64,000 nt of DNA from Candidatus Omnitrophota bacterium (GTDB taxonomy: Bacteria; Omnitrophota; Omnitrophia; Omnitrophales; Aquincolibacteriaceae). The notes beneath the pieces were generated by a model that was not told the DNA's origin, did no database searches, and saw only the letters and a list, made by a program, of their open reading frames with translations. How positions within the stretch are numbered: position 1 is the stretch's first letter; each line of letters begins with the position of its first letter. Below, one piece after another: positions 20,056 to 42,130 of this stretch. Location of the stretch: assembly GCA_035368605.1 (NCBI GenBank), contig DAOSLF010000001.1, positions 22,877 through 86,876 on the forward strand, written 5' to 3'. Made by a program: the position numbers and the translations under genes.

Positions 20056-20646
20056 ATGATAGCGAAAGACAGGAGATTCCGTCCGCTCCCGCCTGTAACG
20101 CTTTTATTCCTTCTCGGTGTCGTGCTTCCTTTGATGAGCGGAACCACGTATGTTGCTTTCGAAGGCAACAAGGAAGTGGGGCGCTATGAGGAGCATGACG
20201 GTAAAAACGATGTCAAGATCGTGCGTCAAGATGCTCCCGCAGCTGAACCTGTTGCCGGGGAAGAGGGGACAGGAGTGACCGGGTCGGTGAGGAGGTCCGG
20301 CTGGTTCGATCGGATCAATGAGAAATTCCTCCACTTAAAAATCGAAGATCCCGACCTTGTTGATTTTCTGAACCGTCAGCCGTGGGTTCAGAAGCTCCGG
20401 ATATGGGATGAGGAGCATGATCTCGAAGAACGGTTTACCGCATGGCGCCCCGTCATGATCGGCGCCATCTTCGGTCTTCTCTCGATCGCGGTTCTTTACA
20501 GGGGCTACCGTGTTTTCCGGTGGATGCGCGGCCGCGCTCGCAGAAGCGCGGTCAAGATTCCGTTGCCGACGACGACGGATACGGTCGGGAAAGTTTCAGG
20601 CAAAAAAACGGATACTTCTTCTGAAGAACAGGAAAAGGCGGAATGA
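20056..20646 (+). CDS. hypothetical membrane-anchored protein
   Basis: GGGAGG RBS. N-terminal and C-terminal hydrophobic segments. No recognisable motif. Confidence 0.4.
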   Translation: MIAKDRRFRPLPPVTLLFLLGVVLPLMSGTTYVAFEGNKEVGRYEEHDGKNDVKIVRQDAPAAEPVAGEEGTGVTGSVRRSGWFDRINEKFLHLKIEDPDLVDFLNRQPWVQKLRIWDEEHDLEERFTAWRPVMIGAIFGLLSIAVLYRGYRVFRWMRGRARRSAVKIPLPTTTDTVGKVSGKKTDTSSEEQEKAE

Positions 20647-21483: not shown

Positions 21484-22242
21484 TCAGATCAGGGACAGAC
21501 CGCCATCCGCGATGACGATCTGACCGACGATCCAGGAAGATTCGGGTGAGCAGAGGAATGTGATGACGCGCGCGAGGTCTTCGGGGGTTGCGACGCGGCC
21601 GGCCGGTGTCCTTTTGACGACTTCTTGCTTGAAGATCTCGAAAAAGGGGAATGCCTTCAGCGCATCCGTGTCCACAAGCCCGCCGGAGACTCCGTTCACC
21701 CGGATTCCCTTGGGCATCAGCTCCACCGCGAGATAACGGATCAGGCTTTCGAGCGCCGCCTTGGAGATACCGATGGCCCCGTAATTCGGGATGTAGCGGT
21801 GAGAACCCAGACTTGAGATCGCGAGGATCGCTCCTTCTTTTTTTGCCTCCATGCCCGGCAGGACCTTCTGGACCATGGCGAGGAAGGCCTTTGTGTTGAT
21901 GTTCATCGAAAGGTCGTATTGATTCATCTTGAGTTTGTGGACCGGCTTGAAGGCCCCGAGCGCGGCGTTGTGGATGAGGATGTCGATCGATCCAAAAGTT
22001 TTGGTGACATTCTCGAACAGCGCGGGGAGTGCGTCGAGGTCGCCGACATTGCACTGGAAGATTTCGGCTTTGACGCCTTTCAAGCGGATTTCTTCGGCCG
22101 TTTTTTGCGCGGCGCCTTCGTTCTGAAGATAATTGACCGCAATGTTCGCACCTTTTTCCGCGAGCGCGAGGGCCGTGGCTTTTCCGATCCCGCGGGATGC
22201 GCCAGTAATGAGGGCTGTCTTGCCATGAAGCGGTGTCGTCAT
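21484..22242 (-). CDS. SDR family reductase, FabL/FabG-like (enoyl- or ketoacyl-ACP reductase)
   Basis: MTTPLHGKTALITGASRGIGKA. Catalytic YGAIGISKAALE (YxxxK). Divergent from the radical SAM gene. Confidence 0.8.
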   Translation of the reverse strand: MTTPLHGKTALITGASRGIGKATALALAEKGANIAVNYLQNEGAAQKTAEEIRLKGVKAEIFQCNVGDLDALPALFENVTKTFGSIDILIHNAALGAFKPVHKLKMNQYDLSMNINTKAFLAMVQKVLPGMEAKKEGAILAISSLGSHRYIPNYGAIGISKAALESLIRYLAVELMPKGIRVNGVSGGLVDTDALKAFPFFEIFKQEVVKRTPAGRVATPEDLARVITFLCSPESSWIVGQIVIADGGLSLI

Positions 22243-22329
22243 AGGCCGAGAGAATAGCAAAGAACACCGGAAAGCTCAATTTAATTCCCCGTGGCCGGTA
22301 AAACAAATTCGGGTAAAAAAGGGAAAGTC

Positions 22330-22344: not shown

Positions 22345-23946
22345 ATGAAAGTTCTCCTGATTAATCCAAAATTCGCCCCGACGATCTGGTCGTTCGACGG
22401 TCTTCGCCCGTTCACGGGCACGAGTTTTTCGACGACCCCTCTCGGGCTCGCGACCGTCGCCGCCTTGACGCCCGCTTCCTGGGAAGTCGAAATTCTCGAC
22501 GAGAATGTCGAGCCGATCGATTTTGAAAAACCGGCCGATCTCGTTGCCGTCAGCGCCTTCAATGTCCAATACCGTCGCGCGATCGAGATCGCGCGCGAAT
22601 TCAGATCCCGCGGCCGGAAAGTGGCGTTTGGCGGACCGTATTGCAGCCTTTTTCCGGAGGCGTTCGAGGGCAAGGCCGACCACCGCATCGTGGGGGAGGC
22701 CGAGGACATTTGGCCGCTTTTTCTTCGTGATTTCGAAGAAGGCAAGGCGCTTGAGCTTTATGTGGCTCCGAAAGCGAGCGTGGATATCCGGAAGAGCCCT
22801 GTCCCGCGTTTTGATCTTATTAAGGGCGATCGATACAATATGTTTTCCCTTCAGACGACTCGAGGTTGTCCCTATAACTGTGAATTTTGCGATATCATCA
22901 TCATGGACGGCCGGAAACCCCGTACGAAGACCGTTCAGCAGGTGCTTGCCGAAGTGGACCATTGCGTTCAGCAGGGGGCCCATTACATCGTGTTCGGTGA
23001 CGCGAATTTTATCGGCAATATCGGCTTTGCCAGGGAACTGCTCACGGCCCTCGCGGATTATTCGAAAAAGAACGGCTACCCGATCGAGTTCTCATGCGAA
23101 TTGACGATCAATGTCGCCCATCACCCCGATCTTCTGGAGCTTCTTCAGGAGGCGAACTTCTACGCCGTTTTCGTGGGGATCGAATCGCCGAGGAAGCAAA
23201 GCCTCCTCGAAGCCGGAAAGTATCAGAACACGCGCGAGGACATCATCGAAGACATCAAGCGTATCCAGTCGTATCACATTTCGGTTGTTGCCGGCATGAT
23301 CGTCGGCTTTGATTCCGACGACAAGGGAATCTTCAAGGAGACCTACGATTTTCTCCAGGAACTCGGCATTGCGTTTACGACCTGCGGGACGCTGATGGCC
23401 CTGCCTCACACGCCGCTCCTTAAACGCCTTAAGGCCGAAGGGCGGCTTCTCGATCTCGAGTGGACGGGCATGAACGGTCACGGCGCTTCGGACTGCAATT
23501 TCATCCCGAAGCTCATGACGCTCGACGAACTGCGTAAAGGCTATAATTGGCTTAGCCGCTGCCTCTATCGTTACGATAGTTACGCTGACCGCCTTGTCGC
23601 CACGCTGAACCGTTTCAGGAACCGTAATAAAGAACATAAAAGAGCGAGTCTCGACACGAAATTCCTGAGCGTTCTCGTCAAGGTCTTCGCCTATTACACG
23701 CTGACCTTCGATCTCAAAAGGATGTCGTTTTTTTACGGAACCATGTGGCGTGTCGCGGTGGGCGGGCCCTTTTCTGTCGGGAAATGGCTGGAATTCTTCC
23801 GCTGGATCGCGACGCATCGCGCTTTTCGCCAATATGTGATGGAAACCCAGGGAGATCCGGAAGAAATGGATCCCAACTCGCCTCCGTTCGATGTCGAGTG
23901 TGCCCCGGTCACGGACGACAGTCCCCGGGAAGAGGTGTTGGTTTAA
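22345..23946 (+). CDS. B12-binding-domain radical SAM enzyme (class B radical SAM)
   Basis: N-terminal cobalamin-binding-like domain (MKVLLINPKF...DLVAVSA). Radical SAM cluster motif CPYNCEFC. About 530 aa with a C-terminal extension. Confidence 0.8.
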   Translation: MKVLLINPKFAPTIWSFDGLRPFTGTSFSTTPLGLATVAALTPASWEVEILDENVEPIDFEKPADLVAVSAFNVQYRRAIEIAREFRSRGRKVAFGGPYCSLFPEAFEGKADHRIVGEAEDIWPLFLRDFEEGKALELYVAPKASVDIRKSPVPRFDLIKGDRYNMFSLQTTRGCPYNCEFCDIIIMDGRKPRTKTVQQVLAEVDHCVQQGAHYIVFGDANFIGNIGFARELLTALADYSKKNGYPIEFSCELTINVAHHPDLLELLQEANFYAVFVGIESPRKQSLLEAGKYQNTREDIIEDIKRIQSYHISVVAGMIVGFDSDDKGIFKETYDFLQELGIAFTTCGTLMALPHTPLLKRLKAEGRLLDLEWTGMNGHGASDCNFIPKLMTLDELRKGYNWLSRCLYRYDSYADRLVATLNRFRNRNKEHKRASLDTKFLSVLVKVFAYYTLTFDLKRMSFFYGTMWRVAVGGPFSVGKWLEFFRWIATHRAFRQYVMETQGDPEEMDPNSPPFDVECAPVTDDSPREEVLV

Positions 23947-24029: not shown

Positions 24030-24059
24030 TTGGGAGCTAAAAAGTCCCTGTGTTATAAT
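24030..24059 (+). promoter_or_regulatory. strong candidate promoter: -35 TTGGGA, 18-nt spacer with TG, -10 TATAAT (TGtTATAATTCCG)
   Basis: Read directly in the rSAM-methyltransferase intergenic region. Confidence 0.55.
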
Positions 24060-24095: not shown

Positions 24096-24731
24096 GTGGA
24101 ATCGCTCTCAAATACACTTCGGACATACCAGCGAAAACTGTTGGATACGTTAGTCAGGTGTCATTTTCGTCCGACGCTCGAAGCGAGGGCGGAATCATTC
24201 GTCAGGCTCTTTGAAACGTTTCTCCCGAAAGGGAGCCGGATTCTGGACCTCGGCGGCGGCTGGGGGTTCTATAGCGAACCGCTTGCCCGGCGCGGGCACG
24301 ATTCGCTCGTTCTTGATGTCGTAAAGCCGGGATATCAAAAGGCACCGGTTGTCATTTACGACGGGAGCAAGATCCCGTTCGGGGACAAAAGCTTTGATGT
24401 AACCCTCCTTGTGACCATGTTACATCATGTGCCGGACCCGGAGGCGCTGATGCGGGAGGTGACGCGCGTGACGCGCTCGCGGGTGGTCGTGGTCGAGGAT
24501 CTTTATCATCATGGAGCGGGACGTTTCTGGACCATCCTTCGGGACCGGTTGCTCAATATGGAGTTCGTGGAACATCCGCATCAGTTCCGGACCCACGGGG
24601 ATTGGCTTCATTTTTTTTGTAGTAAGGGGTTCCGGCTTGAGAAGTTCGCGCGGGTCTATACTTGGCTCGCGGGATTCCGTATTCTGAACGGTGTTTATGT
24701 TTGGGAGTGTGAACCATCGCTCCGCCATTGA
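24096..24731 (+). CDS. class I SAM-dependent methyltransferase
   Basis: Motif I ILDLGGGWGF and motif post-I VLDVV. The start is uncertain; the in-frame GTG at 24096 is the first start downstream of the promoter. Confidence 0.65.
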   Translation: MESLSNTLRTYQRKLLDTLVRCHFRPTLEARAESFVRLFETFLPKGSRILDLGGGWGFYSEPLARRGHDSLVLDVVKPGYQKAPVVIYDGSKIPFGDKSFDVTLLVTMLHHVPDPEALMREVTRVTRSRVVVVEDLYHHGAGRFWTILRDRLLNMEFVEHPHQFRTHGDWLHFFCSKGFRLEKFARVYTWLAGFRILNGVYVWECEPSLRH

Positions 24732-24766
24732 GAACGATACGCGGGGAATGACATCAAGGGCAGGAC

Positions 24767-25177
24767 ATGTCCACTGTTTCGATCGAAAAAGTGCTCTGGA
24801 TCAGGGAGGGAGAAGGGATCGCCGCTTGCGGCCGCATCCCGAGTGACTCGGAGTTTTTTCGCGATCATTTCCCCGAGTTCCCGGTCCTGCCGGGCGTGCT
24901 GGCGCTTGAGATGCTCAAACAGACAGCCGAGAAGTACTTGGCGTCGCTTGGGAACGGCGCGGGGGGCCGTTATTTCCTGAAGCATATCCGCGCGACGCGT
25001 TTCACGAAATATCTGCGTCCCGGGGACGAATGGGAAAGCCGGCTCACGCTGACGCAGAGTTCGGACGAAGAAACGGCTTGGGACGCCAGGCTTTATTATC
25101 ACGGTGAGGTCGCGGTATCCGCCAGACTGACGCTCGCCAGGGTCAAGAATCCTCAATCATCGGCGACATCGTTATAA
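24767..25177 (+). CDS. FabZ/FabA-like hot-dog 3-hydroxyacyl-ACP dehydratase (catalytically competent)
   Basis: FFRDHFPEFPVLPGVLALEMLKQ contains the catalytic His (HFP) and Glu of FabZ. Confidence 0.8.
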   Translation: MSTVSIEKVLWIREGEGIAACGRIPSDSEFFRDHFPEFPVLPGVLALEMLKQTAEKYLASLGNGAGGRYFLKHIRATRFTKYLRPGDEWESRLTLTQSSDEETAWDARLYYHGEVAVSARLTLARVKNPQSSATSL

Positions 25178-25196
25178 CGCAAGGAAAAGGAGAATC

Positions 25197-25607
25197 ATGA
25201 ATAACGAGATTTTCAAGAAAGTGCAGGAAACATTAGCCGGCGCGCTTGGTGTTGACGCCTCTGACGTCACGCCCGACGCCTCCCTGAAGAGAGACCTTGG
25301 CGCCGAATCGATCGATTTTATCGACATCATCTTCCGCCTGGAAAAAAGTTTCGACCTCAAGATTCCCGCGAACGACCTTTTCCCGAGCCATATCTTCACG
25401 AACGAACGTTTCGTGAAAGAGGGAATGGTCACTCCGGAAGGGATTCATGAACTCCGCACGAAACTTCCGTACCTTGACCTCGGGGCTTTCGACAAGGACC
25501 CGCAGGTTGTGAAGCTGGCCGATTATTTCACCGTCAAGATGATCCTCCGTTATCTGGAAGAGCGGCTGGGAAAATCCTCGGGTTGTTCCGGCACCTGCAA
25601 ATCGTGA
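25197..25607 (+). CDS. acyl carrier protein with roughly 55-aa C-terminal extension
   Basis: AAGGAG RBS. DLGAESIDFIDIIFRLEKSF is the ACP phosphopantetheine-attachment helix II region (Ser in AES). Unusual C-terminal tail ending SSGCSGTCKS. Confidence 0.8.
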   Translation: MNNEIFKKVQETLAGALGVDASDVTPDASLKRDLGAESIDFIDIIFRLEKSFDLKIPANDLFPSHIFTNERFVKEGMVTPEGIHELRTKLPYLDLGAFDKDPQVVKLADYFTVKMILRYLEERLGKSSGCSGTCKS

Positions 25608-25978
25608 CGGTCAAAACGCGCCGTCTTCATGGGGTCGGGGTCGATCTCGTATCCCGTTCGCGCATGAAAATGTTTCTGTCCCGCCATCGCGATATGATCA
25701 CGCGCAGGTTCCTGAATGACAGTGAGCGCCGGCGCCGCACCAACATCGGTCTCACGGAACTTGCGGAACTTTTCACCGCCAAGGAAGCTTTCTTCAAGGC
25801 CTGTAATGAGCCCTGGATGGGGTTAGGAGGTTTTCGGGGAATGCGGATCACGGAACGTCGCGGCGACGGATTCACCATGGAATGGAAGGTAGCTGGCACC
25901 CGGCGATGTTATCGCGGTGAGGGGGTTTTTTTCCGTGACGGTGATCTGGTCGGTGCCCACACGATGATCTGGAGTTGA
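25604..25978 (+). CDS. acpS: holo-ACP synthase (4'-phosphopantetheinyl transferase, AcpS type)
   Basis: GVGVDLV near the N-terminus and FTAKEAFFKA match AcpS motifs (GxGxDxV, AxKEAxxKA). GTG start overlaps the ACP stop (GTGA). Confidence 0.7.
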   Translation: MTVKTRRLHGVGVDLVSRSRMKMFLSRHRDMITRRFLNDSERRRRTNIGLTELAELFTAKEAFFKACNEPWMGLGGFRGMRITERRGDGFTMEWKVAGTRRCYRGEGVFFRDGDLVGAHTMIWS

Positions 25979-25980
25979 GT

Positions 25981-26415
25981 ATGCGTTGGCTTCTTCTTGA
26001 CAAAGTTCTCTCGATCCACCGTGGCAAACGAGCCGTGACCGAATCCCGTGTTCCCTGCGCGCCCTACTCAAGCGAAGTCCTTTTTGTCGAAATGATGGCC
26101 CAGACCGGAGGTCTTCTGGTCGGAGCGGAAAGCGATTACCGGAACGACGTGATCTTCGCGAAGATCGAGTCTGCTTCGTTCGCCGGGGTTCCGGCCCCAG
26201 GTACTCCGATCACGGTTGAGGCGTTCGCGGACGGGCTCGCTCCCGAGGGTGGGTGGATCGAAGGTGTGATAACAATGGCCGGCGTGGTCATCGCGAAGGC
26301 AAAACTGCTTCTTATGTCTGTCGGGCGGCTCGTCCCGGGGCATTCTCAACCCATCACCTTCCATGATAATTTCATGGAGCATTTCAAGGTCCGGGAGAAG
26401 GTGTCGGTATCATGA
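25981..26415 (+). CDS. hot-dog fold dehydratase-like protein lacking the catalytic His (probable non-catalytic DH partner)
   Basis: Hot-dog length and FVEMMAQTGGLL central helix resemble FabZ, but there is no HxP/HFP motif. Confidence 0.6.
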   Translation: MRWLLLDKVLSIHRGKRAVTESRVPCAPYSSEVLFVEMMAQTGGLLVGAESDYRNDVIFAKIESASFAGVPAPGTPITVEAFADGLAPEGGWIEGVITMAGVVIAKAKLLLMSVGRLVPGHSQPITFHDNFMEHFKVREKVSVS

Positions 26416-27701
26416 CCAGGCACCGGGTGGTCGTCACGGGGTTTGGTGTTATCAGCGCCTGCGGGAACGGATGGGAACCCTATTGGGACAGCGCTCTCCA
26501 GGGACGCTCGGCGGTTCGTGAAGTCGAACGTCTCAAACTGAACGGATTTTCTTTCAAATATGCCGGAACGATTCGGGATTTTGACCCCAAACAATACGTG
26601 GAGAACCGAAAATCCCTCAAGGTCATGTCCCGCGAGATCCAGCTCGCCGTGGGGGCCGCGAAGCTTGCCCTCCAGGATGCCGGTCTTTTCGGGACCGCTT
26701 ATGACCAGTCCCGCTTCGGTGTGACGCTCGGGACCGGTATCATCAATAACGATCTTGACGAGATCGGTGTGGGTTTCAAGAACGCGATCGATGGCTCGGG
26801 ACGTTTTTCGATGGCGAAGTTCGGCCAGGAAGGTGTCCGCTCTCTTTTTCCGCTCTGGTTCCTGAAATACCTTCCGAATATGCCTGCCTGTCACGTTTCG
26901 ATCGCTTACCATCTCCGGGGACCCAGCAACACGATCACGACATCCTCGGCGGCGGGGGCCCAGGCGATCGGGGAGGCGTATCGGGTGATCGAGCGCGGCG
27001 ACGCGGATATCATGCTGGCCGGCGGGACCGATTCAAAATTGAATGCGATGGGGATCTCCCGTTTCCATCTGCTCGGTCTTCTCTCAAAACGGGCCGGATT
27101 GCCGGAGCATGTCTACACGCCGTTCGATGAGCGTCACGACGGGATCGTGCTCGGGGAAGGAGCCGGCATTCTTGTTCTGGAATCGCTGGAGAACGCGAAA
27201 CGGCGCGGGGCTCCCATCTATGCCGAGATCACGGGTTATGGTTCCTCTTCGGATTTCAATTTCGATCCGCGTGACGAGGATGATTTCACCGGCAAGCGGG
27301 TCGCGATGCGGCGAGCGCTCGAAGACGCGGGGATCGAACATCACGACGTCGATGTGATCGTCGCAAACGGGAGCGGCGTTCCCCAGGGGGATATCCAGGA
27401 AGCCCTTGCCATCCACTCGTTCTGTATGGGGTCGTTCGACAAACAGAGCGTGACCGCGCTCAAATCCGTGACGGGAGATCTCGTCTACGGCTCGGGTGGT
27501 GTCGAGGCTGTGATCGCCGCGTTGATCGCCAACAAGCGGGTCGTACCGCCCGTGACCAATCTTAAAAAACCTTATCCGGAATGTCCGCTGCCGCTTGTCC
27601 GGGACAAAGCCAAGTCCGCCGACGTCACGAACGTCATGTTCAACAACTTCGGTTTCGGCGGACAGAACGCGTCACTGGTGTTCAAACATGTCAAAGCGTA
27701 G
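26412..27701 (+). CDS. ketosynthase-like protein lacking Cys/His/His catalytic triad (chain-length-factor-like KS-beta)
   Basis: Thiolase-fold KAS architecture. Active-site positions read ITTSSAAGAQAIGEA (Cys to Ser), DVIVANGSGV (His to Asn) and KSVTGDLVYGSGGVE (His to Asp). ATGA coupling to the upstream gene. Confidence 0.85.
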   Translation: MTRHRVVVTGFGVISACGNGWEPYWDSALQGRSAVREVERLKLNGFSFKYAGTIRDFDPKQYVENRKSLKVMSREIQLAVGAAKLALQDAGLFGTAYDQSRFGVTLGTGIINNDLDEIGVGFKNAIDGSGRFSMAKFGQEGVRSLFPLWFLKYLPNMPACHVSIAYHLRGPSNTITTSSAAGAQAIGEAYRVIERGDADIMLAGGTDSKLNAMGISRFHLLGLLSKRAGLPEHVYTPFDERHDGIVLGEGAGILVLESLENAKRRGAPIYAEITGYGSSSDFNFDPRDEDDFTGKRVAMRRALEDAGIEHHDVDVIVANGSGVPQGDIQEALAIHSFCMGSFDKQSVTALKSVTGDLVYGSGGVEAVIAALIANKRVVPPVTNLKKPYPECPLPLVRDKAKSADVTNVMFNNFGFGGQNASLVFKHVKA

Positions 27702-28983
27702 GATCGTCGTTACAGGAGTGGGGGCGGTGACGCCTCTCGGGAACAATGTCAGGGATACCTGGCTCCGTGTCACACAGGGTAAATCGGGGATCGGTCCTAT
27801 TACGCTTTTTGACGCCTCGACGTTCAACACGCGGATCGCGGGCGAAGTGAAAAATTTCAATTTTGAACGCTGGCTCGAACGGAACCCGCCACTCGCGTCT
27901 GCCACGCGCAGTACGTTCTTCGCGCTTCAGGCCGCCGCGGAAGCCTATAAAGACGCGATGTTGAAGCCGTTCAGTGTTGATTCGCGGCGCTTCGGCCTTT
28001 ATTTCGGTGCCGGGGACAGCGGAATCGATTTCGAGCCGTTTATCAAGACCCTCATGGCCTCCTTCGGCCCGGGCGCCGAGTTGGTCGATAAGGGGAAATA
28101 CCTCCACCATGCCCCGGAACACATGAGCGCCTTGCGCGAGCTCGAAAGCCAGCCGTTCATGACGGTAACGCATCTGACGCGCCTTTTCGACATCCGGGGT
28201 CCCGTGTCGAACTGTCTGACAGCCTGCGCGGCTTCCTCGCAGGCGATCGGCGAAGCTTACGAATGGATCAAGCGCGGTGATGCGGATGTTATGATGTCGG
28301 GCGGTTCTCATTCCATGGTCTATCCGCTGGGTATCGCGGGTTTCAGTCTCCTGACCGCGCTGTCGACGCGTAATTCGGAGCCCGAGAAAGCGTCGCGGCC
28401 GTTCGACAAGAAACGTGACGGTTTTGTGATCTCGGAAGGCGCTGGCGTGCTGATTATCGAGGAACTCCAGCACGCGAAGAAACGCAAGGCGCATATTTAT
28501 GGTGAGGTTGTCGGCTACGGTTCGACAGCCGACTCGTACCGGCTTACGGATATGGATCCGGAGGCTCGCGGGGCCTCGGAGGCGATGCGGATCGCGATGA
28601 CGAAAGCCGGCATCGGACCCGCTGACGTTGATTACATCAACGCGCACGGGACCTCGACCTCGGTCAACGACTCTCTTGAAACAACCGTAATCAAGAAGGT
28701 CATGGGGGAGTATGCGAAGAAGATCCCTGTGAGCTCGACCAAATCGATGCTTGGGCATATGATCGCGGCGGCGGGTGGTGTGGAAGCGATCTTCTGCCTG
28801 CTCGCAATGCGTGATTCGATCATCCCTCCGACGATCAATTATGAAGAGCCCGACCCGGAACTCGATCTGGACTATGTTCCCAACGTTGCCCGCCGCACCG
28901 ACGTGAATGTCGCGCTTTCCAACTCATTTGGCTTCGGCGGTCAGAATATCTGCTTGGCATTGAGGAGATACGATGGCGCATGA
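27688..28983 (+). CDS. beta-ketoacyl-ACP synthase (FabF-like KS-alpha, catalytic)
   Basis: Start MSKRRIVVTGVGAV. CLTACAASSQAIGEA (Cys), YINAHGTSTSVND (His) and KSMLGHMIAAAGGVE (His). Overlaps the KS-beta 3' end by 14 nt. Confidence 0.9.
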   Translation: MSKRRIVVTGVGAVTPLGNNVRDTWLRVTQGKSGIGPITLFDASTFNTRIAGEVKNFNFERWLERNPPLASATRSTFFALQAAAEAYKDAMLKPFSVDSRRFGLYFGAGDSGIDFEPFIKTLMASFGPGAELVDKGKYLHHAPEHMSALRELESQPFMTVTHLTRLFDIRGPVSNCLTACAASSQAIGEAYEWIKRGDADVMMSGGSHSMVYPLGIAGFSLLTALSTRNSEPEKASRPFDKKRDGFVISEGAGVLIIEELQHAKKRKAHIYGEVVGYGSTADSYRLTDMDPEARGASEAMRIAMTKAGIGPADVDYINAHGTSTSVNDSLETTVIKKVMGEYAKKIPVSSTKSMLGHMIAAAGGVEAIFCLLAMRDSIIPPTINYEEPDPELDLDYVPNVARRTDVNVALSNSFGFGGQNICLALRRYDGA

Positions 28984-30064
28984 TCTTGTTTTTATGACCG
29001 GAGCGACCGGTGTGCTCGGTCAGGAGCTTGTCAAAAAACTGCTGCTCACGACGGAGTCCGATATCGCGATTCTTTCACGCGCGAAGAATCGCGTGCCCCA
29101 TGCCGAGCGTGTCCGGAAGATCCTGAAGGCGGCGGGGATGGACGCCCATTTCGGTTCGCGGGTCCGCGTGGTGGAAGGGGATGTCACGAAGCGTAAATTC
29201 GGATTGAAGAAAGAGGATCTCGATTTTCTCGAAAGGGAATGCCGCGTTTTTTATCATATTGCCGCCCTGACCGCGTTGAATGGAACGGATAAGGAATGCC
29301 AGCAGATTAATGTGGGCGGGACCGAACACGCGCTTGAGCTTGCGTGGGATCTCCGGAAAAAGGGGAATCTCGAGCGCTTTATCTATTTCAGCACCGCGTT
29401 CGTGGCCGGCAGTGTCTGGAATTACCGGTCTACGGAGGATTCGCTTCCCGAGAAACCCGCATTTGCAAACTACTACGAGTCCAGCAAGCATGAGGCAGAA
29501 GGCAAGGTCCGGAAGGCGATGGGACACGGCCTGCCGGTGACCATCATCCGGCCGAGCATCGTGGTCGGCGACTCCGTGACGGGCGAGGTTTCCGATTTTA
29601 ACGTGATCTACCCTTTCATCAAACTGTTCGCGCACGGCATCCTGACGAAGCTTCCGACCCACCCTGAGAATACGTTCAATATCGTGCCGATCGATTTCGT
29701 CATCAACGCGACGACGGCCATCGTCAGGAATCCCCGATCGATCAACAAGTGTTTCCATCTGGTGTCGCCGGAGCCGCCTTCCATCGGTTCCCTGGTGGCT
29801 CTCCGCGAATCTTTCCCGAAGGTCGCCAAGATCGAGATGATCGATCCGTCGAGCTTTAAAAAGGACCAGCTGGACCCGCAGGGGCAGATGGTCTTTTCGA
29901 TGCTGGAGCCCTATCTCGGTTATTTGAACGGCAAGTTGACCTTCGACACCTCGAACACCGAAGAAATCCTGCGTGATACGGACGTCCGGATGCCTGAGAC
30001 GGGTCCCGCTTTCCTGAAAACGCTGATCACCTATGCCGCCAAGGCGGGATATTTGGCGATCTGA
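28973..30064 (+). CDS. stand-alone thioester reductase (NAD(P)-dependent, extended SDR; fatty acyl-ACP/CoA reductase-like terminal R domain)
   Basis: FMTGATGVLGQELVKKLL (TGxxGxxG) and YYESSKHEAE (YxxxK) with the overall TR-domain layout. Overlaps the KS stop. Confidence 0.75.
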   Translation: MAHDLVFMTGATGVLGQELVKKLLLTTESDIAILSRAKNRVPHAERVRKILKAAGMDAHFGSRVRVVEGDVTKRKFGLKKEDLDFLERECRVFYHIAALTALNGTDKECQQINVGGTEHALELAWDLRKKGNLERFIYFSTAFVAGSVWNYRSTEDSLPEKPAFANYYESSKHEAEGKVRKAMGHGLPVTIIRPSIVVGDSVTGEVSDFNVIYPFIKLFAHGILTKLPTHPENTFNIVPIDFVINATTAIVRNPRSINKCFHLVSPEPPSIGSLVALRESFPKVAKIEMIDPSSFKKDQLDPQGQMVFSMLEPYLGYLNGKLTFDTSNTEEILRDTDVRMPETGPAFLKTLITYAAKAGYLAI

Positions 30065-30577
30065 CGGGTTCCGGAGCGTTTCGGTATGTTTTTAGCGGCG
30101 GATCGGAAATAGCGCAAATCCGATCGGTCCAGGGAGCGCATGAAGGAGATGCCCTCCGGTCAGTTGTTCCATCCGGTGCGCGTTTTTTGTCGTGCTTCTT
30201 GTCTTTCTTGCCTGTCCCTCTATCCCCGAATTAGCGGCCGACCCTGTATCTGTCTCCGCCACGGATAACGCATGATAATGTCAATGTTCTTATGCAAGGA
30301 TTGAGAGGCGTTTTCTCGAAGATCAGTTCCCGGACCCTGTTTTTCAGCCCCTAGGGATTTTTATCGGTGTGAATGGCGGGGGGGGATATGAGGTTCTGGT
30401 CACGGGCATCGGAAGATTGGTTTGCGCGGGCCATTCCACCCGATCCTTTCGAGATACGGGCGCTTTTTGATCCCGTCAGCCTATGCCGGGAAAGCCGCTC
30501 GGGCCAGCCGGAACCGGGATGGTCGCGTTGCTTCAAAAGAAAAAACAATGGCCAAGGCGGAATAGGGGTTTTTATTT

Positions 30578-31753
30578 CTATCGCCAGTGTGTCGGGTGTT
30601 TCAGCGCGGCCATTTTCAGGGCATCCGCGAGGATGAGCGTGAAAACGGCGGCGGCAAGCGGATGAAACAATGCTGATACCGGATTCGCCTTGACTATCGT
30701 ATGGGTCTTAAACGCCGTGATCCAGATGATGAACGCAAGTCCTGTCGCCAGAATCCCGGCCAGTGAATTTCCGAAACAGAAAGGCAGGATGGCGAACGGT
30801 AACACCGAAAAAAGAAAAGTGCTCAGGACACAGCGTAGAAGGTCCGCCGGATTTTGTTCAAAGGCGTGAAGGTAGATGCGCCGCCACCCCCGCCATAGCG
30901 TCTCGAACGAGTCATACATCCGGGTACCATAGAGATTCATTCCGAAAGCGCAAATCCCCTTTGCCCCGGTTTCCTTGGTCTTTCTCATCAGCGCGAAGTC
31001 TTCGAGAAAAGCCTCCTTGACCGCGTGATGACAGCCGAGTTTCCGGTAATGGCTGTGCCGGAGAAGGAGGTACTGGCCGTTTCCGAAGTAGACCTTTGAT
31101 TCGGGATCGTTGATCTTCCGGACAGGGAACCATAGCCCCATGTAGCCCATCGCGCAGGGCTGGATGAGGTTTTCCCAGAAGCCGTGAGCCAGACAGCGGG
31201 GAAGCAGGGTCAGGAGGTCAAGGGAGTTTGTTTCCGAAAAAGCGATCGCGGCGTCGACGCTTCCCGGTTCGTGTCTTGTGTCGGCGTCCGTGAAAAGCAG
31301 CCAGTCGCCTTTGGCGTAGTCTTTGCCGAGATGAAGCGCATAGTTCTTTCCCGTCCAGCCTTCAGGAGTCTCGGGAGTATTGAGATATCCCAAAAAGGGT
31401 CCGTCGCTACTGTCCTTTTTTGTACCGAAAAAGGTGCCTGACCCCTTGATTTCCTCAGCGCCAAGGTCTTTCAGGATCGCTTCGGTTCTGTCTGTGGAGC
31501 CGTTATTGATGACGATGATCTCATCGCTCTCTCGGAGCTGGCTCAAAAAGGGCCGGACGCATGCCGCGATGTTTTTTTCCTCGTTCCGGGCCGGGATCAG
31601 GACCGTCACAGAACCTTTGCGAATGTTTCCGGAAGGAATTCTGAGCGCGGGGGCTTGGGCCAGTTCGGAGAGGGACCGGATGCTACGGTAAATCCATACA
31701 CCAAGCGCAGTCAGGAGATAGGTCAGGAGGATGGGCTCCATAGAGTCAGGCAT
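30578..31753 (-). CDS. membrane-anchored GT2 glycosyltransferase
   Basis: N-terminal TM, VLIPARNEE, IIVINNGSTDRT and FTDADT (DxD), plus C-terminal hydrophobic helices. Start assumed at MPDSMEPILLTY. Confidence 0.7.
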   Translation of the reverse strand: MPDSMEPILLTYLLTALGVWIYRSIRSLSELAQAPALRIPSGNIRKGSVTVLIPARNEEKNIAACVRPFLSQLRESDEIIVINNGSTDRTEAILKDLGAEEIKGSGTFFGTKKDSSDGPFLGYLNTPETPEGWTGKNYALHLGKDYAKGDWLLFTDADTRHEPGSVDAAIAFSETNSLDLLTLLPRCLAHGFWENLIQPCAMGYMGLWFPVRKINDPESKVYFGNGQYLLLRHSHYRKLGCHHAVKEAFLEDFALMRKTKETGAKGICAFGMNLYGTRMYDSFETLWRGWRRIYLHAFEQNPADLLRCVLSTFLFSVLPFAILPFCFGNSLAGILATGLAFIIWITAFKTHTIVKANPVSALFHPLAAAVFTLILADALKMAALKHPTHWR

Positions 31754-31821
31754 CTTAGCAAATGGAGATGGCGGGTCAAGGAAAACTATCAACGGCTAGC
31801 ATTTCTAATCGTTGGGATGGA

Positions 31822-36326: not shown

Positions 36327-36848
36327 ATGATCTGCAATGTGTGCGGGACAAAGGAAGCGACGATTCACCTGACCGAGGTTGTGAGCGGTCAGATGGCGGA
36401 AGTGCATATCTGCGAGCAGTGCGCCGAAGAGAAGGGGACGGATTTCAAGACCTATTTCAACTTTGGCGACTTCTTCACGGGTTTCGCGGGGATCGGAAAA
36501 CTTCTTGAGACGCCGGGGGAAAAAACCGCGGTCGCCTGCAAATCCTGCGGTATGACCTTCGAGGAATTCTCCAAACAGGGACGTCTTGGATGCGCGCAGT
36601 GTTATACCGCGTTTCATCGTCAGCTTGAAGCCGTGATCAAACAGGTCCAGCGGGCGGGGGTCCATGTCGGCAAAAAACCGTCCAGAATCCCGAAGGATGT
36701 TCGGCGCGCTCACGATCTCCGCCAGCTTCAGGACCGTCTGCGCAAATGCATCCAGAACGAGGCGTTTGAGGAAGCGGCGCGCCTTCGCGACGAGATCAGG
36801 CAGATCGAAGACAAGAACAAGCGCCCGAGGAAAACAAAAAATGACTGA
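36327..36848 (+). CDS. mcsA: protein-arginine kinase activator McsA-like (zinc-finger plus UVR domain)
   Basis: Paired CxxC motifs (CNVCG...CEQC; CKSCG...CAQC). C-terminal UVR motif AFEEAARLRDEIRQIE. Confidence 0.7.
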   Translation: MICNVCGTKEATIHLTEVVSGQMAEVHICEQCAEEKGTDFKTYFNFGDFFTGFAGIGKLLETPGEKTAVACKSCGMTFEEFSKQGRLGCAQCYTAFHRQLEAVIKQVQRAGVHVGKKPSRIPKDVRRAHDLRQLQDRLRKCIQNEAFEEAARLRDEIRQIEDKNKRPRKTKND

Positions 36849-37905
36849 GAACGGTTCTTCGCCGGCGCAGTCGGTCAACTGGCTTCGGGCCACGGGTCCC
36901 GAGAACGATGTGGTCGTCAGCTCCCGCATACGGCTCGCGCGCAATCTCGCGAATTACCCGTTCCTGATCAAGATGACGCCCGATCAGCGGATCGCCCTGA
37001 TCGCGGAGATGGAAAAGGCGGTCCGCGCCTCGAGTTTTCTGAAGAAGGCCAACATGATCCTGACGAAGGAGATCGGCGAGATCGACCGGCAGTTCCTTCT
37101 CGAGCGGTATCTGATTTCGAACGCGCTGGTGCGCGAGGACGGTGCGAGCGCGGTTGTGATCACGCCGGATGAAATGGTCAGCCTCATGATGATCGAGGAA
37201 GACCACCTCCGGCTCCAGGTCTTCCAGTCGGGGCTGAACCTTGCCGAGGCGTGGCGCATTGCCGACGAGATCGATATGGAACTCGAAAAGAGCCTTAGTT
37301 ACGCTTTTGACGCGACGCTTGGTTACCTGACGGCCTGCCCGACGAATGTCGGGACCGGTATTCGCGCCTCCTGCATGCTGCATCTGCCGAGCCTTGTGAT
37401 TACGAAACAGATCCAGAAGGTGTTGCAGGCGCTTTCAAAACTGAACCTCGCGGTGCGAGGCCTTTACGGCGAAGGGACACAGGCGCTCGGGAGTTTTTTC
37501 CAGTTCTCGAACCAGATCACGCTCGGACAGCCTGAGACGGAGATCATCTCGAATCTCGAAGGAGTCATTAAACAGGTAATCACGCATGAGCGGGAGGCGC
37601 GGGAATATCTCCGGAAGAAACGCAAAACAAAAATGGAAGACCAGGTGTGGCGGGCGCTCGGCGTTCTGAAATCGGCGAGGCTCATCTCGTCCCAGGAAGC
37701 GATCCAGCTTTTGTCGCTTGTGCAGACCGGTGTCGATACCGGGATCATCGAAGGCCGGGTGACCCACCGGGACCTGAACCAGCTTTTTTTATGGATCCAG
37801 CCCGGGCATCTCCAAAAAATGCACGGGTCGGAACTCAGCGCTGCGGATCGCGACATTCAACGCGCTGACCGGATCCGGACGTTCTTCTCAAAGTTGTTAC
37901 TTTAA
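36841..37905 (+). CDS. mcsB: protein arginine kinase McsB (ATP:guanido phosphotransferase)
   Basis: Phosphagen-kinase signature CPTNVGTGIRAS. Overlaps the mcsA 3' end. Confidence 0.85.
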   Translation: MTENGSSPAQSVNWLRATGPENDVVVSSRIRLARNLANYPFLIKMTPDQRIALIAEMEKAVRASSFLKKANMILTKEIGEIDRQFLLERYLISNALVREDGASAVVITPDEMVSLMMIEEDHLRLQVFQSGLNLAEAWRIADEIDMELEKSLSYAFDATLGYLTACPTNVGTGIRASCMLHLPSLVITKQIQKVLQALSKLNLAVRGLYGEGTQALGSFFQFSNQITLGQPETEIISNLEGVIKQVITHEREAREYLRKKRKTKMEDQVWRALGVLKSARLISSQEAIQLLSLVQTGVDTGIIEGRVTHRDLNQLFLWIQPGHLQKMHGSELSAADRDIQRADRIRTFFSKLLL

Positions 37906-37908
37906 CCC

Positions 37909-39621
37909 ATGAGGATACCGTTTATGAAGAAGCCCCTTCTCGTTCTCATCCTTTCAATATTGTGGGTGCCGGCGAGCGTGTTCGCGGAAAATGTGACAGC
38001 TGATTCGAGGATCAGTCAGGTGACGGTGTATTCGAATGATGCCTTTGTTACGCGCGCGGCAACGGTCGAGGTCAATCCGGGCGACACCAGGGTCGTGTTG
38101 CCGAATCTTGTGGCCGCTTTCGATCCGGACTCGCTTCGCGTGAGGGGCCGCGGGACCGCCGCCGTGAAAATCCTGGGTGCCCAGGTTGAGAGGGCTTTTC
38201 TCAAGGAAACCCCTGTCGCAAGGGTGAAGGAGCTTGAAGCGCAGATCGAAGGGATCGAGGACCAGAATAAAAAACTTGAGAACGAGAAGAATGTTTTGAA
38301 GGAAGAGAAATCTTACCTGGATTCGATCAGGCTCTTCGCGGGGCAGAAACTTCCCGAGGACCTGGTGACCAGGATGCCGACCGCCCAGGATCTGGAATCA
38401 ACGCTTGTATTCCTGGGTACCAGGTTGAAGGAGAATTTCAGCCGCGGTCTGGCGATCGACCTTGAGATCCGTGAGAACGTGAAGAAGCTTGAGGTCCTGC
38501 GCCGCGAACTCGCCGAGCTCTCCGGTTACGGGCAGAAGGTGAAATACTCCGTCGTGGTGGATATCGAAGTGGCGAAAGCCGGTCGACTCGATCTCGAGGC
38601 CGCCTACAAGGTCGGCGGGGCATCGTGGGAATCCGTCTATGATGCCCGCGCCCAGCTTGACAAGGCTAGGACCGAGCTTGTGACCTATGCGATTGTCCGC
38701 CAGACCACGGGCGAACCCTGGGATGATGTGGATATGACACTTTCGACGGCGCAGGTGAATGCCGGCGGCAGCATGCCTGAGGTGAACAGCTGGTTCATTC
38801 ATCCGTATCAGCCGCCGGTGCCTGTGAATCGCGGAAAAATGATGTATGCGGCAAAGGCTGGGTCCCTGGAGGCAAAGTCGCCGGGTGACTTTGACATGAT
38901 GAGAGCTTCGGCGGCCCCGCCACAGCTCGCGATGGAACCCGAAATGATGATCGCCGAAACGGCTTATACCCAGGCCGAAAGCAAGGGCATCTCCGTTGTT
39001 TACAAACTGCCCCGGCGAGTTACGATCAAACCGGACGGAGCCGATCACAAAGTGCCGGTGACCGCCCAGGACCTGGTCTCCAACTTCGAATATTCCGCGT
39101 ATCCGAAAATGGTCCCGGTCGCATATCTCAAGAGCCGGGTCACGAACGCGAAAGATATCCAGCTTTTGGGAGGCAAGGTGAATGTCTTCTTTGAAGGGGA
39201 TTTCGTCGGGAACTCCCGTATCCCGAACATCGCTCCGGGCGAGGAATTTGACCTTTATCTGGGCGCGGACGACAACGTGAAAGTGAAGCGGGAATTGCTC
39301 GAGAAGAAATCCGATAATGTCCTGATCGGCAATATTCCGTCGTCCACCAAGAAAATCGCTTATAAATACAAGCTGACAGCCGAAAATTATAAGGCCCAGG
39401 CCGGTAAACTCAGCCTGTTCGAGGCGATCCCGGTCTCCCAGGATGAGCGCATCAAGGTCAAGGTCACTCAGATCAGCCAGGAACCCCAGGACAAGGACTG
39501 GAAGGACAGGAAGGGTGTCTGGCGCTGGGAGCTTCAGCTTGAACCGAAAGCCAAAAAAGAGATTTTCTACACCGTGACCGTTGAGTTCCCGCGGGACATG
39601 ACGGTGGAGGGACTCGAGTAA
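37909..39621 (+). CDS. secreted coiled-coil protein, DUF4140/DUF4139-like (hypothetical)
   Basis: Signal peptide MKKPLLVLILSILWVPASVFA. N-terminal VTVYSNDAFVTRAATVEV. Long coiled-coil. Family assignment is from memory only. Confidence 0.45.
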   Translation: MRIPFMKKPLLVLILSILWVPASVFAENVTADSRISQVTVYSNDAFVTRAATVEVNPGDTRVVLPNLVAAFDPDSLRVRGRGTAAVKILGAQVERAFLKETPVARVKELEAQIEGIEDQNKKLENEKNVLKEEKSYLDSIRLFAGQKLPEDLVTRMPTAQDLESTLVFLGTRLKENFSRGLAIDLEIRENVKKLEVLRRELAELSGYGQKVKYSVVVDIEVAKAGRLDLEAAYKVGGASWESVYDARAQLDKARTELVTYAIVRQTTGEPWDDVDMTLSTAQVNAGGSMPEVNSWFIHPYQPPVPVNRGKMMYAAKAGSLEAKSPGDFDMMRASAAPPQLAMEPEMMIAETAYTQAESKGISVVYKLPRRVTIKPDGADHKVPVTAQDLVSNFEYSAYPKMVPVAYLKSRVTNAKDIQLLGGKVNVFFEGDFVGNSRIPNIAPGEEFDLYLGADDNVKVKRELLEKKSDNVLIGNIPSSTKKIAYKYKLTAENYKAQAGKLSLFEAIPVSQDERIKVKVTQISQEPQDKDWKDRKGVWRWELQLEPKAKKEIFYTVTVEFPRDMTVEGLE

Positions 39622-39667
39622 GCGAGTGTCGTTCGTCATCGTACCATAAAATCTCCGGAGGTTTTTC

Positions 39668-42130
39668 ATGTTCGACCGTTTCACCGAGCGAGCCCGCAAG
39701 GTCATCATCCTTGCGAAGGAAGAGGCCAAACGCTTCAATCACGATTACATTGGGACCGAGCACATCCTTCTCGGTCTGATCAAAGAGGGGGAGAGCGTCG
39801 CTGCGGCTGTACTGCAGAACCTCGGACTTTCGCTCGACACGATCCGTCTCGAGATCGAGAAGCTCGTGCAGTTTGGACCAAGCACCGTTGTGTCAGGGGA
39901 TATCCCGTTCACGCCCAAGGCGAAAAAGGTCATCGAGCTCGCAATGGACGAGGCGCGCCGGCTTGGGCACAACTACATCGGGACCGAGCATCTGCTGCTC
40001 GGTCTCATCAAGGAGGGGGAAGGCGTTGCGAGTCACGTGCTCACGAACGTCGGCCTTGACCTCAATAAGGTCCGTTCAGAAGTCATCAAGCTTCTCGGAT
40101 CGGCTTCGCCCGGCGGCGATGCGGGCGGTGCCCCGGGACAACCGGCTTCCGGGATCGGGGGCGGCAGCAAGGCAAAGACCAAAACGCCGGCGCTCGACGC
40201 TTTTGGACGCGATCTTTCGCAGCTCGCGCGTGAGGGAAAACTCGACCCCGTGGTCGGCCGCCATGACGAGATCGAGCGCGTGATCCAGATTCTCGCCCGG
40301 CGCACAAAGAACAACCCGGTGCTTCTCGGAGAGGCCGGGGTCGGCAAGACCGCGATCGTTGAAGGGCTCGCCCAGAGGATCATCGCGGGCGATGTCCCGG
40401 AGATTCTGATCGACAAGCGCATGATCGTGCTGGATCTTGCTTTGATGGTTGCCGGTACGAAATACCGCGGGCAGTTCGAGGAACGCATCAAGGCGGTGAT
40501 GGACGAGATCCGCCGCGCCGACAACGTGATTATTTTCATCGACGAGCTTCACACTCTGGTAGGGGCCGGCGGCGCGGAAGGCGCGATTGATGCATCGAAC
40601 ATCTTGAAGCCATCGCTTTCCCGCGGCGAGATCCAGTGCATTGGCGCGACGACGCTCGACGAATACCGTAAATACATCGAAAAGGACGCCGCGTTGGCCC
40701 GCCGTTTCCAGACCGTCATCGTCGATCCTCCCTCGGTCGACGACACGATCCAGATTCTGAAAGGCCTTCGCGATAAGTATGAGGCGCATCACCGGGTCAA
40801 GATCACCGATGAAGCCCTCTCCGAAGCCGCGAAACTCTCCGACCGCTATATTTCCGGCCGGTTCCTTCCGGACAAAGCGATCGATATTATCGATGAGGCC
40901 GCTTCGCGCGCCCGTCTTTCCGTGACGACGCTCCCGAAGGACCTGAAGAAAATGGAGACCGAGATCGAATCGCTTCGCCGTGAAAAAGAAGCTTCGATCA
41001 AGGGACAGGATTTCGAAAAGGCCGCAAAGCTCCGGGACGAGGAACGCAAGGCCAAGGAAGACCTCCAAAAGATGAAGAAGAGCTGGAAGGAATCCAAATC
41101 CGAGGTCGAAATCCAGGTGACGGGTGAGGATATCGCGTTCGTGGTCTCGAAGTGGACCGGTGTTCCGCTCGCACGTCTTGAAGAAAAAGAGACCGCGCGT
41201 CTTCTCAAGATGGAGGAAGAAATCCATAAACGGATTATCGGCCAGGACGAGGCGATCCGGGCGATCGCGCACGCGGTCCGCCGCTCGCGGTCCGGGCTCC
41301 GCAATCCGCGCCGTCCCATCGGCACCTTTATTTTTCTCGGTCCCACAGGTGTCGGCAAGACGCTGCTCGCGCGCGCTCTCGCCGAGTTTATGTTCGGCGA
41401 CGAAGACGCCATCATCACGGTCGATTGCTCCGAATATGGTGAGAAGTTCAACGTCTCACGTCTCGTCGGTGCGCCCCCCGGCTATGTCGGGTACGAAGAG
41501 GGCGGTCAGTTGACGGAAAAGGTGCGCCGGCGCCCCTATTCGGTGGTGTTGCTTGACGAGATCGAAAAAGCGCATCCGGACGTTTTTAATATCCTTCTCC
41601 AGCTGATGGAGGAAGGCCGGCTGACGGATTCTTTCGGCCGCAAGGTGGACTTCCGGAACACGATCGTCATTATGACCTCCAACGTCGGCGCGGATCTCGT
41701 CCGCAAACAGGGCGACCTTGGCTTTACGGTCAAAAAGGACGATCTGAACTACGACAATCTCAAGACGAAGCTCCTCGATGAGACCAGGAGAGTCTTTCGT
41801 CCGGAGTTCTTGAACCGGGTCGACGACATCATCGTCTTTCACCCGTTGACGCGCCAGGACCTCGAACAAATCATTGATATCGAGCTCGGCGAGGTCAAGG
41901 ATCGGCTCAAGGAAAAGAAGATGGAACTTTTGCTCTCCGATGAGGTGCTCAAGTTCCTGATCGACCAGGGTTATGATCCCGTGTTTGGTGCCCGACCGCT
42001 CAAGCGGACGATCCAGCGGCATATCGAAAACATTCTTGCTGAGGAAATCCTTGGCGGCAAGTTCCGGGAAGGTGACAAGATACGAGCGGAAGTCCGCGGT
42101 GACAGGATCGTTTTTGAGAAAGCGACCTGA
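39668..42130 (+). CDS. clpC: ATP-dependent Clp protease ATP-binding subunit ClpC
   Basis: Two Clp_N repeats. Two AAA modules (GEAGVGKT; GPTGVGKT). Middle UVR motif ([15 protein letters not shown]). Confidence 0.95.

Follow-up and report, generated by a model that had tools for sequence, protein, structure and literature searches.

The window analysed here, a stretch of 64,000 nucleotides from the genome of a Candidatus Omnitrophota bacterium, carries on its + strand, at 24767-26415, four genes that are closely packed in the list of open reading frames (ORFs) and encode a FabZ-like 3-hydroxyacyl-ACP dehydratase subunit (DH1), an acyl carrier protein (ACP), an AcpS-type 4'-phosphopantetheinyl transferase and a second hot-dog subunit (DH2). 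The same four genes, with equal lengths and starts, are found in independent JGI, ENA and NCBI assemblies, and the named homologues belong to Candidatus Omnitrophota. They are held within one operon (about 24096-30064, all + strand) that opens with a gene for a class I S-adenosylmethionine (SAM)-dependent methyltransferase (24096-24731; PF08241, E 1.2e-13), continues through DH1 (24767-25177), ACP (25197-25607), AcpS (25604-25978) and DH2 (25981-26415) to two FabF-like ketosynthase (KS) genes, KS1 (26412-27701; PF00109 and PF02801) and KS2 (27688-28983), and ends with a stand-alone thioester reductase of the NAD_binding_4 type (28973-30064; PF07993, E 4e-53; TIGR01746, E 4e-48). Both ends of the operon are flanked by signals recognised as consensus matches only, namely a promoter-like site before the methyltransferase gene (24030-24059, + strand; TTGGGA-18-TATAAT, 10/12 matches plus a TG extension) and a terminator-like hairpin 3' of the reductase gene (30071-30084, + strand). 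No FabD, FabH or FabG gene was found in the operon.

DH1 (136 aa) matched the FabA-like family PF07977 in a Pfam scan (E 1.3e-11; 44.7 bits against a cut-off of 23) and aligned over its full length with E. coli FabZ 6n3p (E 1.4e-9), with scores under the FabZ equivalog cut-offs (TIGR01750, 61.4 vs 113 bits; NF000582, 55.1 vs 155). It carries RDHFPEFPVLPGVLALEM, in which His34 (codon 24866-24868) and Glu48 are separated by a FabZ-like spacing of 14 residues, confirming the HFP...E catalytic dyad that had been recognised in an earlier, sequence-only reading of this DNA. A direct hmmscan of DH1 against the ApeI-like family PF22818 gave 14 bits (E 0.06; cut-off 28.5), whereas precomputed Pfam tables (L083-L087 in our numbering of loci) assign this family to DH1 and do not mark the match as weak, a disagreement that probably reflects a difference in model version or threshold. 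The N-terminal FabZ segment is absent from both DH1 and DH2.

DH2 (144 aa; ATG at 25981 with GGAG 7 nt upstream) gave no match in the Pfam scan, even at E values up to 10, and weak FabZ matches in NCBIfam (E 1.7e-7) that fall under the FabZ cut-offs (TIGR01750, 31.2 vs 113 bits; NF000582, 26.5 vs 155). Its AlphaFold model, built with 24 homologues, has a mean predicted local distance difference test (pLDDT) score of 87.5 and consists of a hot-dog fold and, C-terminal to it, two short helices (residues 126-140), a helical tail with the motif TFHxxFM. The top Foldseek matches of this model are FabZ structures (E about 3e-7), amxFabZ among them, and the best PDB sequence match is Kuenenia amxFabZ 8ayd (E 6e-5). 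Arg23 (codon 26047-26049) occupies the position of the FabZ catalytic His, 14 residues before the conserved Glu37 (codon 26089-26091); this spacing rules out a deletion of the His itself, the 11-residue deletion lying upstream of Arg23. A profile search of 1.84 billion representatives recovered only 357 DH2 relatives, and DH2 falls within a wider family of short FabZ-like proteins beginning MRW, most of which keep LAEEHLHDHFPGFPVMP, while in the Omnitrophota branch 11 residues directly upstream of the His position are deleted and the His is replaced. The Omnitrophota DH2 alignment (A2) has a mean column identity of 70%, a VEMMAQTGG motif with invariant Glu37, and Lys or Arg at the His position. 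One short-form DH2 with the 11-residue deletion (L010, 10818-11276) carries His in the canonical place (RSHVP), where its close relative L013 has Arg; in that branch the residue was regained or had never been lost.

At 136 residues the ACP exceeds the compact four-helix bundle of about 75-90 residues, and PF00550 matched it on residues 8-62 only (E 5e-12; 46.3 bits against a cut-off of 20.8), where the phosphopantetheine-attachment Ser38 (25308-25310) lies, as helix II begins, in a GAESID motif that is invariant in the alignments. It scores below the cut-offs of all NCBIfam ACP models. In a PDB profile search, residues 3-61 aligned with helices I-II of ordinary ACPs and residues 107-125 (LADxFTVKMILRYLExRLG) aligned separately with helix IV; MAFFT alignment with E. 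coli AcpP opened one gap of 44 columns, spanning residues 68-111; the AlphaFold model (pLDDT 76) places the last long helix at 113-127, followed by a disordered tail (residues 128-136, pLDDT <50); and in Foldseek whole 80-residue ACPs superpose over 125 alignment columns, with a TM score of 0.84 normalised to the target. These four agreeing results point to an insertion of about 44 residues (about 68-111; 25398-25529, + strand) that separates helix III from helix IV, and to a tail of about 10 residues (SSGCSGTCKS; the Cys-containing KSSGCSGTCKS lies at 25575-25604, + strand). The extra residues and the Cys tail noted previously are therefore real, but they do not form the C-terminal extension of roughly 55 residues that had been described, since most of them are internal and precede helix IV.

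The insertion is gap-free in 60 distinct orthologues, and G76, T79, G82, E85, L86, P91, Y92, L93, F98, D101, P102 and Q103 are invariant in the ACP alignment (A1), while the Cys tail is confined to a closer Omnitrophota subgroup. More than 120 full-length ACP homologues share 62-99% identity, and an identical 136-aa ACP is encoded in independent JGI, ENA and NCBI assemblies. An origin of the long ACP in a frameshift or assembly artefact, which would have undone the earlier description, was considered and is ruled out by this full-length conservation, by the identical independent assemblies and by the occurrence of the insert-type ACP at a minimum of 577 loci. The ACP gene is broken in one assembly of 2x coverage (L085). 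Searches of the PDB by sequence profile and Foldseek returned no solved structure spanning the insertion, and no description of an insert-bearing ACP was found in the searchable literature. The insertion probably adapts the carrier to its partner enzymes or to an unusual acyl chain.

A genome scan with the ACP profile, using one genome per GTDB species, confirmed at least 577 genome loci with the insert-type ACP, which is spread over hundreds of Planctomycetota, Omnitrophota and related genomes. The best 80 of these loci come from Omnitrophota, many Planctomycetota orders (including two complete genomes), Chlamydiota, Auribacterota and a few other groups. Searches with the window proteins (tblastn) showed that the order DH1-(SDR)-ACP-DH2-(KS1)-KS2, where SDR is a short-chain dehydrogenase/reductase, is kept almost everywhere, and 65 of the 69 loci with enough flanking sequence have DH1 on the upstream side of the ACP and DH2 on the downstream side. 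In the branch of Omnitrophota to which the window belongs (L001-L019) this core is joined by the upstream methyltransferase, AcpS between ACP and DH2 and the downstream thioester reductase, together with a divergent FabL-type reductase and a convergent glycosyltransferase.

The catalytic positions of the two dehydratase subunits were compared in the window and in 82 related loci, of which 80 come from the genome scan. The DH1 His is conserved in 77/77 orthologues and the DH2 Glu in 79/79. The other two positions vary: the DH2 His is retained in 50 of 79 orthologues and replaced in 29 by K, R, L, N, Y, Q, C, S, T, E or W, by our reading in at least seven separate lineages, and the DH1 Glu is retained in 67/77 (Q in 8, D in 2). 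In FabZ and FabA the His of one subunit and the Glu or Asp of its partner together form the active site. PMC10139942 names the catalytic His and Glu. Both residues that never change thus belong to one cross-subunit site and both residues that decay belong to the reciprocal site. Preservation of a single cross-subunit site suggests a DH1:DH2 heterodimer with one composite active site, in which the reciprocal site (the DH2 'His' position and DH1 Glu) would be dead owing to Arg23 and the 11-residue deletion of DH2. At two loci (L076 and L082), DH1 has His/Gln and DH2 has Asn/Glu, so that neither homodimer would contain a complete site and the heterodimer would contain exactly one. The pattern is hard to explain by two independent homodimers, and the window DH2 would then represent an advanced case of a decay that has recurred many times in the family. 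Glu invariance in 79/79 orthologues, every His-less one included, indicates that DH2 is probably not simply non-catalytic, and would be expected if DH2 gives its Glu to the site that uses the DH1 His; the previous description of DH2 as a His-less hot-dog protein is well founded in its confident fold and in Arg23, and its portrayal as a non-catalytic partner is the part that probably does not fit. On balance, we consider it likelier than the contrary that the operon encodes a fatty acid synthase (FAS)-like machine working on a dedicated, insert-bearing ACP, with a DH1:DH2 heterodimer whose one composite site would combine His34 of DH1 and Glu37 of DH2.

The AcpS-type enzyme (124 aa) matched PF01648 (E 1.6e-11; 44.6 bits against a cut-off of 25) and carries the Mg/CoA-binding Asp and Glu motifs in GVGVDLV and FTAKEAFFKA, with scores below the NCBIfam AcpS equivalog cut-offs (for example TIGR00516, 28 vs 59.8). 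Its GTG start at 25604 overlaps the ACP TGA at 25605-25607 and is the start in gene calls of five independent assemblies, in agreement with the GTGA junction reported earlier; TTG 25583 is an in-frame alternative start. The GTGA overlap is shared by the window and L004; in L005-L009 the gene begins at an ATG within the ACP tail, giving an 11-nt overlap, and L010 and L013 have an ATG 2 nt past the ACP stop. The TG of candidate AcpS starts comes from Cys codons of the tail, as TTG in GGT-TGT (window 25575-25607) and as ATG in CAA-TGC (L005-L009, near 10395-10408), and dual coding may partly constrain the Cys-rich tail. The AcpS homologues found in a word-limited search are all cluster-type Omnitrophota proteins, and by tblastn the AcpS gene is absent from most modules outside the Omnitrophota. 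No second ACP was found in the 64-kb window. Given the tight and conserved coupling of the ACP and AcpS genes, it is plausible that, as proposed, the carrier protein is charged by an enzyme of its own cluster.

The ketosynthases show an asymmetry of their own. KS1 is chain-length-factor (CLF)-like, with Ser/Asn/Asp in the alignments at the triad positions occupied by Cys/His/His in KS2, and KS2 is of the active type, exceeding the cut-off of NCBIfam NF005589 (479 vs 387 bits) and scoring 487 bits against TIGR03150 (cut-off 493.75). The two genes overlap by 14 nt, and where a locus has two KS genes, degeneration affects the first in 42/44 cases and Cys-His-His is intact in the second in 44/44. 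The pairing of an intact with an inactive KS that marks KS/CLF heterodimers is thus present, and we infer a KS1:KS2 heterodimer on the model of the anammox pair amxFabF2/amxFabFmut. Specific orthology to the anammox FabF pair is not supported, since KS1 and KS2 are both nearer to canonical FabF (4ls5) than to 9s5h, which we take to be that pair. The thioester reductase had its best PDB match in the MxaA reductase (E 3.5e-23), and its position as a stand-alone enzyme encoded by the last gene suggests chain release as an aldehyde or alcohol. For the methyltransferase, which lies upstream of DH1 in Omnitrophota loci, PDB and NCBIfam searches returned generic matches only, including weak NCBIfam matches to the DVU_1556 family and BioC.

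Three neighbouring genes may belong to the same pathway. Divergent from the cluster lies a FabL-type enoyl-ACP reductase of the SDR family (21484-22260, - strand; PF13561, E 1.7e-69; NCBIfam FabL NF005975, 306 bits vs 328) with a Tyr-x6-Lys motif (YGAIGISK), the enoyl-reductase signature, and a FabL-type SDR is found at the same position in the Omnitrophota loci L004-L017. SDRs inside the Planctomycetota-type modules have instead the ketoreductase signature Tyr-x3-Lys, which suggests that the Omnitrophota operon has an adjoining enoyl reductase and no ketoreductase. Upstream of the operon is a B12-binding radical SAM protein with DUF4070 (22345-23946, + strand, start per gene calls; PF04055, PF02310 and PF13282), whose best NCBIfam match, TIGR04072 (rSAM_ladder_B12), reaches 79.8 bits against a cut-off of 360, so that it is not a member of that family; by tblastn this gene precedes the operon only in the window, L004, L018 and, weakly, L050. 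Convergent with the operon is a membrane glycosyltransferase of family 2 (GT2; 30578-31792, - strand; PF00535 and PF13506), a position kept in Omnitrophota loci, with best NCBIfam matches to HpnB (125 bits) and CruG (108 bits), both far under the cut-offs. HpnB and CruG glycosylate lipid hydroxyls.

The rest of the 64-kb window consists of housekeeping genes whose synteny is conserved in Omnitrophota. Consecutive genes for a McsB-like arginine kinase, a MuiA-family protein (DUF4139/DUF4140; TIGR02231, 375 bits) and ClpC form a protein-quality-control neighbourhood (36664-42130) with no relation to the lipid operon. Two ORFs have no Pfam or NCBIfam match (42137-44053, 638 aa, between the ClpC and MlaEFD genes; 20056-20646, 196 aa), and an IS200-type Y1 transposase gene (61558-62238; PF01797) lies near the window end.

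Taken in order, these proteins outline a possible pathway. AcpS, translationally coupled to the ACP gene, would convert apo-ACP into holo-ACP at Ser38, and the KS1:KS2 pair would act on the insert-bearing carrier. The 3-keto group would be reduced by a ketoreductase encoded outside the operon, the FabZ-type DH1:DH2 heterodimer would dehydrate the product with His34 of DH1 and Glu37 of DH2, as residue conservation suggests, and the neighbouring FabL-type reductase would saturate the enoyl intermediate. The thioester reductase would free the chain as an aldehyde or alcohol, which the methyltransferase and, in the window genome, the B12 radical SAM enzyme may modify, and the adjoining lipid-type GT2 may glycosylate the product. 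We infer the order of these steps and the nature of the product, which is possibly a fatty alcohol or aldehyde.

Several observations weigh against this interpretation. The Fisher tests on the residue asymmetry (p = 1.7e-10 and 6e-4) ignore kinship among the loci; ketoreductase and malonyl transferase genes were not found in the operon; and the DH2 tail has a His of its own (His128, in TFHxxFM) that is invariant among close relatives and is a candidate substitute for the catalytic His, which would bear on the earlier reading of DH2 as His-less. The short-form proteins of L010, L013 and L018 have Pro at position 128, and most long-form orthologues have Thr, Ser or Asn. At one Omnitrophota locus, L018, DH2 is His-less and no DH1 was found within 20 kb, so DH2 may act alone or with another partner, and retention of the DH1 Glu in 67/77 orthologues means that DH1 may also form active homodimers. 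At L018 (9376-11195) the methyltransferase abuts the ACP, DH2 also lacks the tail His, and FabL is in two fragments. The missing DH1 of L018 and the retained Glu of DH1 could be taken together to propose that DH2 is an independent homodimeric hot-dog protein, acting as an isomerase, as a thioesterase that depends on its Glu, or as a protein that binds or gates acyl-ACP, with the DH1 homodimer as the dehydratase, a proposal to which the conserved extra C-terminal helical tail, absent in DH1, and the match of two distant DH2 relatives (alignment A3) to the 4HBT thioesterase family also lend support. We regard it as unlikely. A full His and Glu motif in 50/79 DH2 orthologues would require repeated changes of function, the loss of the DH1 Glu in 10 loci where the His is never lost would stay unexplained, as would L076 and L082, in which only the cross-subunit site is complete, and chain release is already supplied by the reductase. 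That DH2 is instead a structural silent partner or a decaying relic, contributing no catalytic residue and giving the substrate tunnel its shape, the role of HadA and HadC towards HadB, would match the earlier view of this protein, the loss of the His with 11 neighbouring residues and a score under every Pfam threshold, but we think it quite improbable: Glu37 and the EMMAQTGG helix are invariant in 79/79 orthologues, His-less ones included, and a mean column identity of 70% (alignment A2) is not what a relic would show.

A different objection concerns the role of the whole locus and not of DH2. The operon lies among housekeeping genes in conserved synteny and beside FabL, so it may be the main fatty acid synthase of these bacteria, with AcpS as their sole phosphopantetheinyl transferase. 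On such an account, which we find rather doubtful though it deserves more weight than those just discussed for DH2, the AcpS of these small-genome bacteria would be the general holo-ACP synthase, encoded beside the only ACP. The near-threshold score of KS2 against the FabF equivalog, the adjacent FabL, the synteny of the housekeeping neighbours across Omnitrophota, the single ACP of the 64-kb window and the recovery of cluster-type AcpS homologues alone in the word-limited search all agree with it. In a Sedimentisphaerales genome (L079, 5695-8096), however, a canonical fabG-acpP-fabF operon, with an acpP product 64% identical to E. coli AcpP, lies directly upstream of an orthologous DH1-ACP-DH2-KS-KS module, which indicates that the module is a second system, at least in that genome. 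The Omnitrophota operon, moreover, ends in a thioester reductase and does not feed acyltransferases, and FabD, FabH and FabG are missing from it.

The closest studied analogue is Cluster I of anammox bacteria (KustE3603-3608), which comprises amxACP, amxFabZ, amxFabF2, amxFabFmut, a phytoene-dehydrogenase-like protein and a B12 radical SAM protein. As there, a dedicated ACP gene precedes a FabZ-like gene, after which comes a pair of FabF genes, one inactive and one active; a B12 radical SAM gene is likewise present in the vicinity, and amxFabZ 8ayd is the best PDB match of DH2. The two systems differ in that amxFabZ is a homohexamer with both catalytic residues, whereas the Omnitrophota operon encodes two DH proteins, of which one lacks the His; the operon here has AcpS, methyltransferase and thioester reductase genes in addition; and its ACP, unlike the amx-type, is insert-bearing, with no amx-type or other solved ACP chain in the PDB search spanning the insert. 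No phytoene-dehydrogenase-like gene was found in the window, and orthology to the anammox proteins is not supported. The anammox amxFabF2/amxFabFmut pair is a KS/CLF-like heterodimer that decarboxylates malonyl-ACP (bioRxiv 10.64898/2026.05.19.726425), and amxFabZ is active on its own ACP only (PMC10139942). AntiSMASH has called 'ladderane' clusters in Omnitrophota, with no function attached (PMC9902471).

Aryl polyene (Ape) systems offer a second comparison, as their heterodimeric dehydratase has a single active site (PMC8041823). The operon resembles these systems (ApeI/ApeP, ApeO/ApeC) in its predicted heterodimeric dehydratase, KS/CLF pair, dedicated ACP and cluster methyltransferase. Membership of the Ape family is nevertheless not supported by direct scans and gene context: DH1 reached only 14 bits against the PF22818 cut-off of 28.5, DH2 had no match, 0/25 distant DH2 relatives matched Ape families, and genes for ApeH (aryl-ACP ligase), ApeR (KS), ApeQ (ketoreductase), ApeK (thioesterase), a LolA-like protein or MMPL export were not found next to the operon. 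The label 'ApeP-type', once attached to DH2, is accordingly not supported, as DH2 matches no Ape family, the window holds no other Ape genes and ApeP is itself named as the dehydratase in PMC12624758. The adjacent enoyl reductase and reductive release also count against a polyene acid product.

Among the remaining systems, HadAB and HadBC of Mycobacterium pair a catalytic hot-dog subunit with a non-catalytic, length-setting partner and act on AcpM, which is longer than usual. Among hot-dog proteins those of the Had type fall in the MaoC-like branch, and both catalytic residues are found in HadB. DH1 and DH2, by contrast, are both FabZ-like, and the preserved site is apparently split between the subunits. 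AcpM has a C-terminal extension and no internal insertion, and its structure 1klp aligns with the ACP described here over the core only. Rhizobial AcpXL (2kw2, 101 aa) likewise matches over the ACP core alone. The rhizobial acpXL-fabZXL-fabF2XL-fabF1XL cluster combines a longer specialised ACP with its own FabZ and two FabF proteins, stands beside the housekeeping system and makes the very-long-chain fatty acids of lipid A, but it has a single FabZ and releases its chains through the LpxXL acyltransferase and not through a reductase. With canonical FabZ, AcpP, AcpS and FabF, finally, the operon shares the folds, the catalytic motifs, the four-helix core and attachment Ser of the ACP and an AcpS of about 120 aa; it departs from canonical type II FAS in that DH1, DH2, ACP and AcpS all fall under NCBIfam equivalog cut-offs and that KS and DH are each doubled into an intact and a degenerate copy.

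A wider proposal, which we advance only tentatively and judge possible, though less probable than not, is that the insert-bearing ACP, the split-site DH1:DH2 pair and the KS/CLF-like pair constitute a lipid module found across the Planctomycetota-Verrucomicrobiota-Chlamydiota (PVC) superphylum, parallel to ordinary FAS and producing a distinct envelope lipid. In Omnitrophota, where AcpS, the methyltransferase, the reductase and a lipid-type glycosyltransferase join the module, this lipid might be a long-chain alcohol or alkyl glycoside, and the anammox Cluster I would be a specialised offshoot. Literature searches on lipid synthesis in Omnitrophota gave nothing specific. If the proposal is true, Cluster I derives from an older module and is not an anammox invention.

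Polyketide systems provide earlier examples of heterodimeric dehydratases and of KS/CLF pairs, and anammox FabF homologues have recently been added to these. In the present operon of the fatty-acid type the two asymmetries are combined, and the comparative data lead to a testable prediction, that of one working site composed of the DH1 His and the DH2 Glu. Genome mining labels such loci 'ladderane', a label for which there is no evidence. Identifying the product of the module would give context for the ladderane pathway, which is unsolved and for which a candidate cluster with a comparable core is known, and would fill a gap in the envelope lipid biology of the PVC bacteria.

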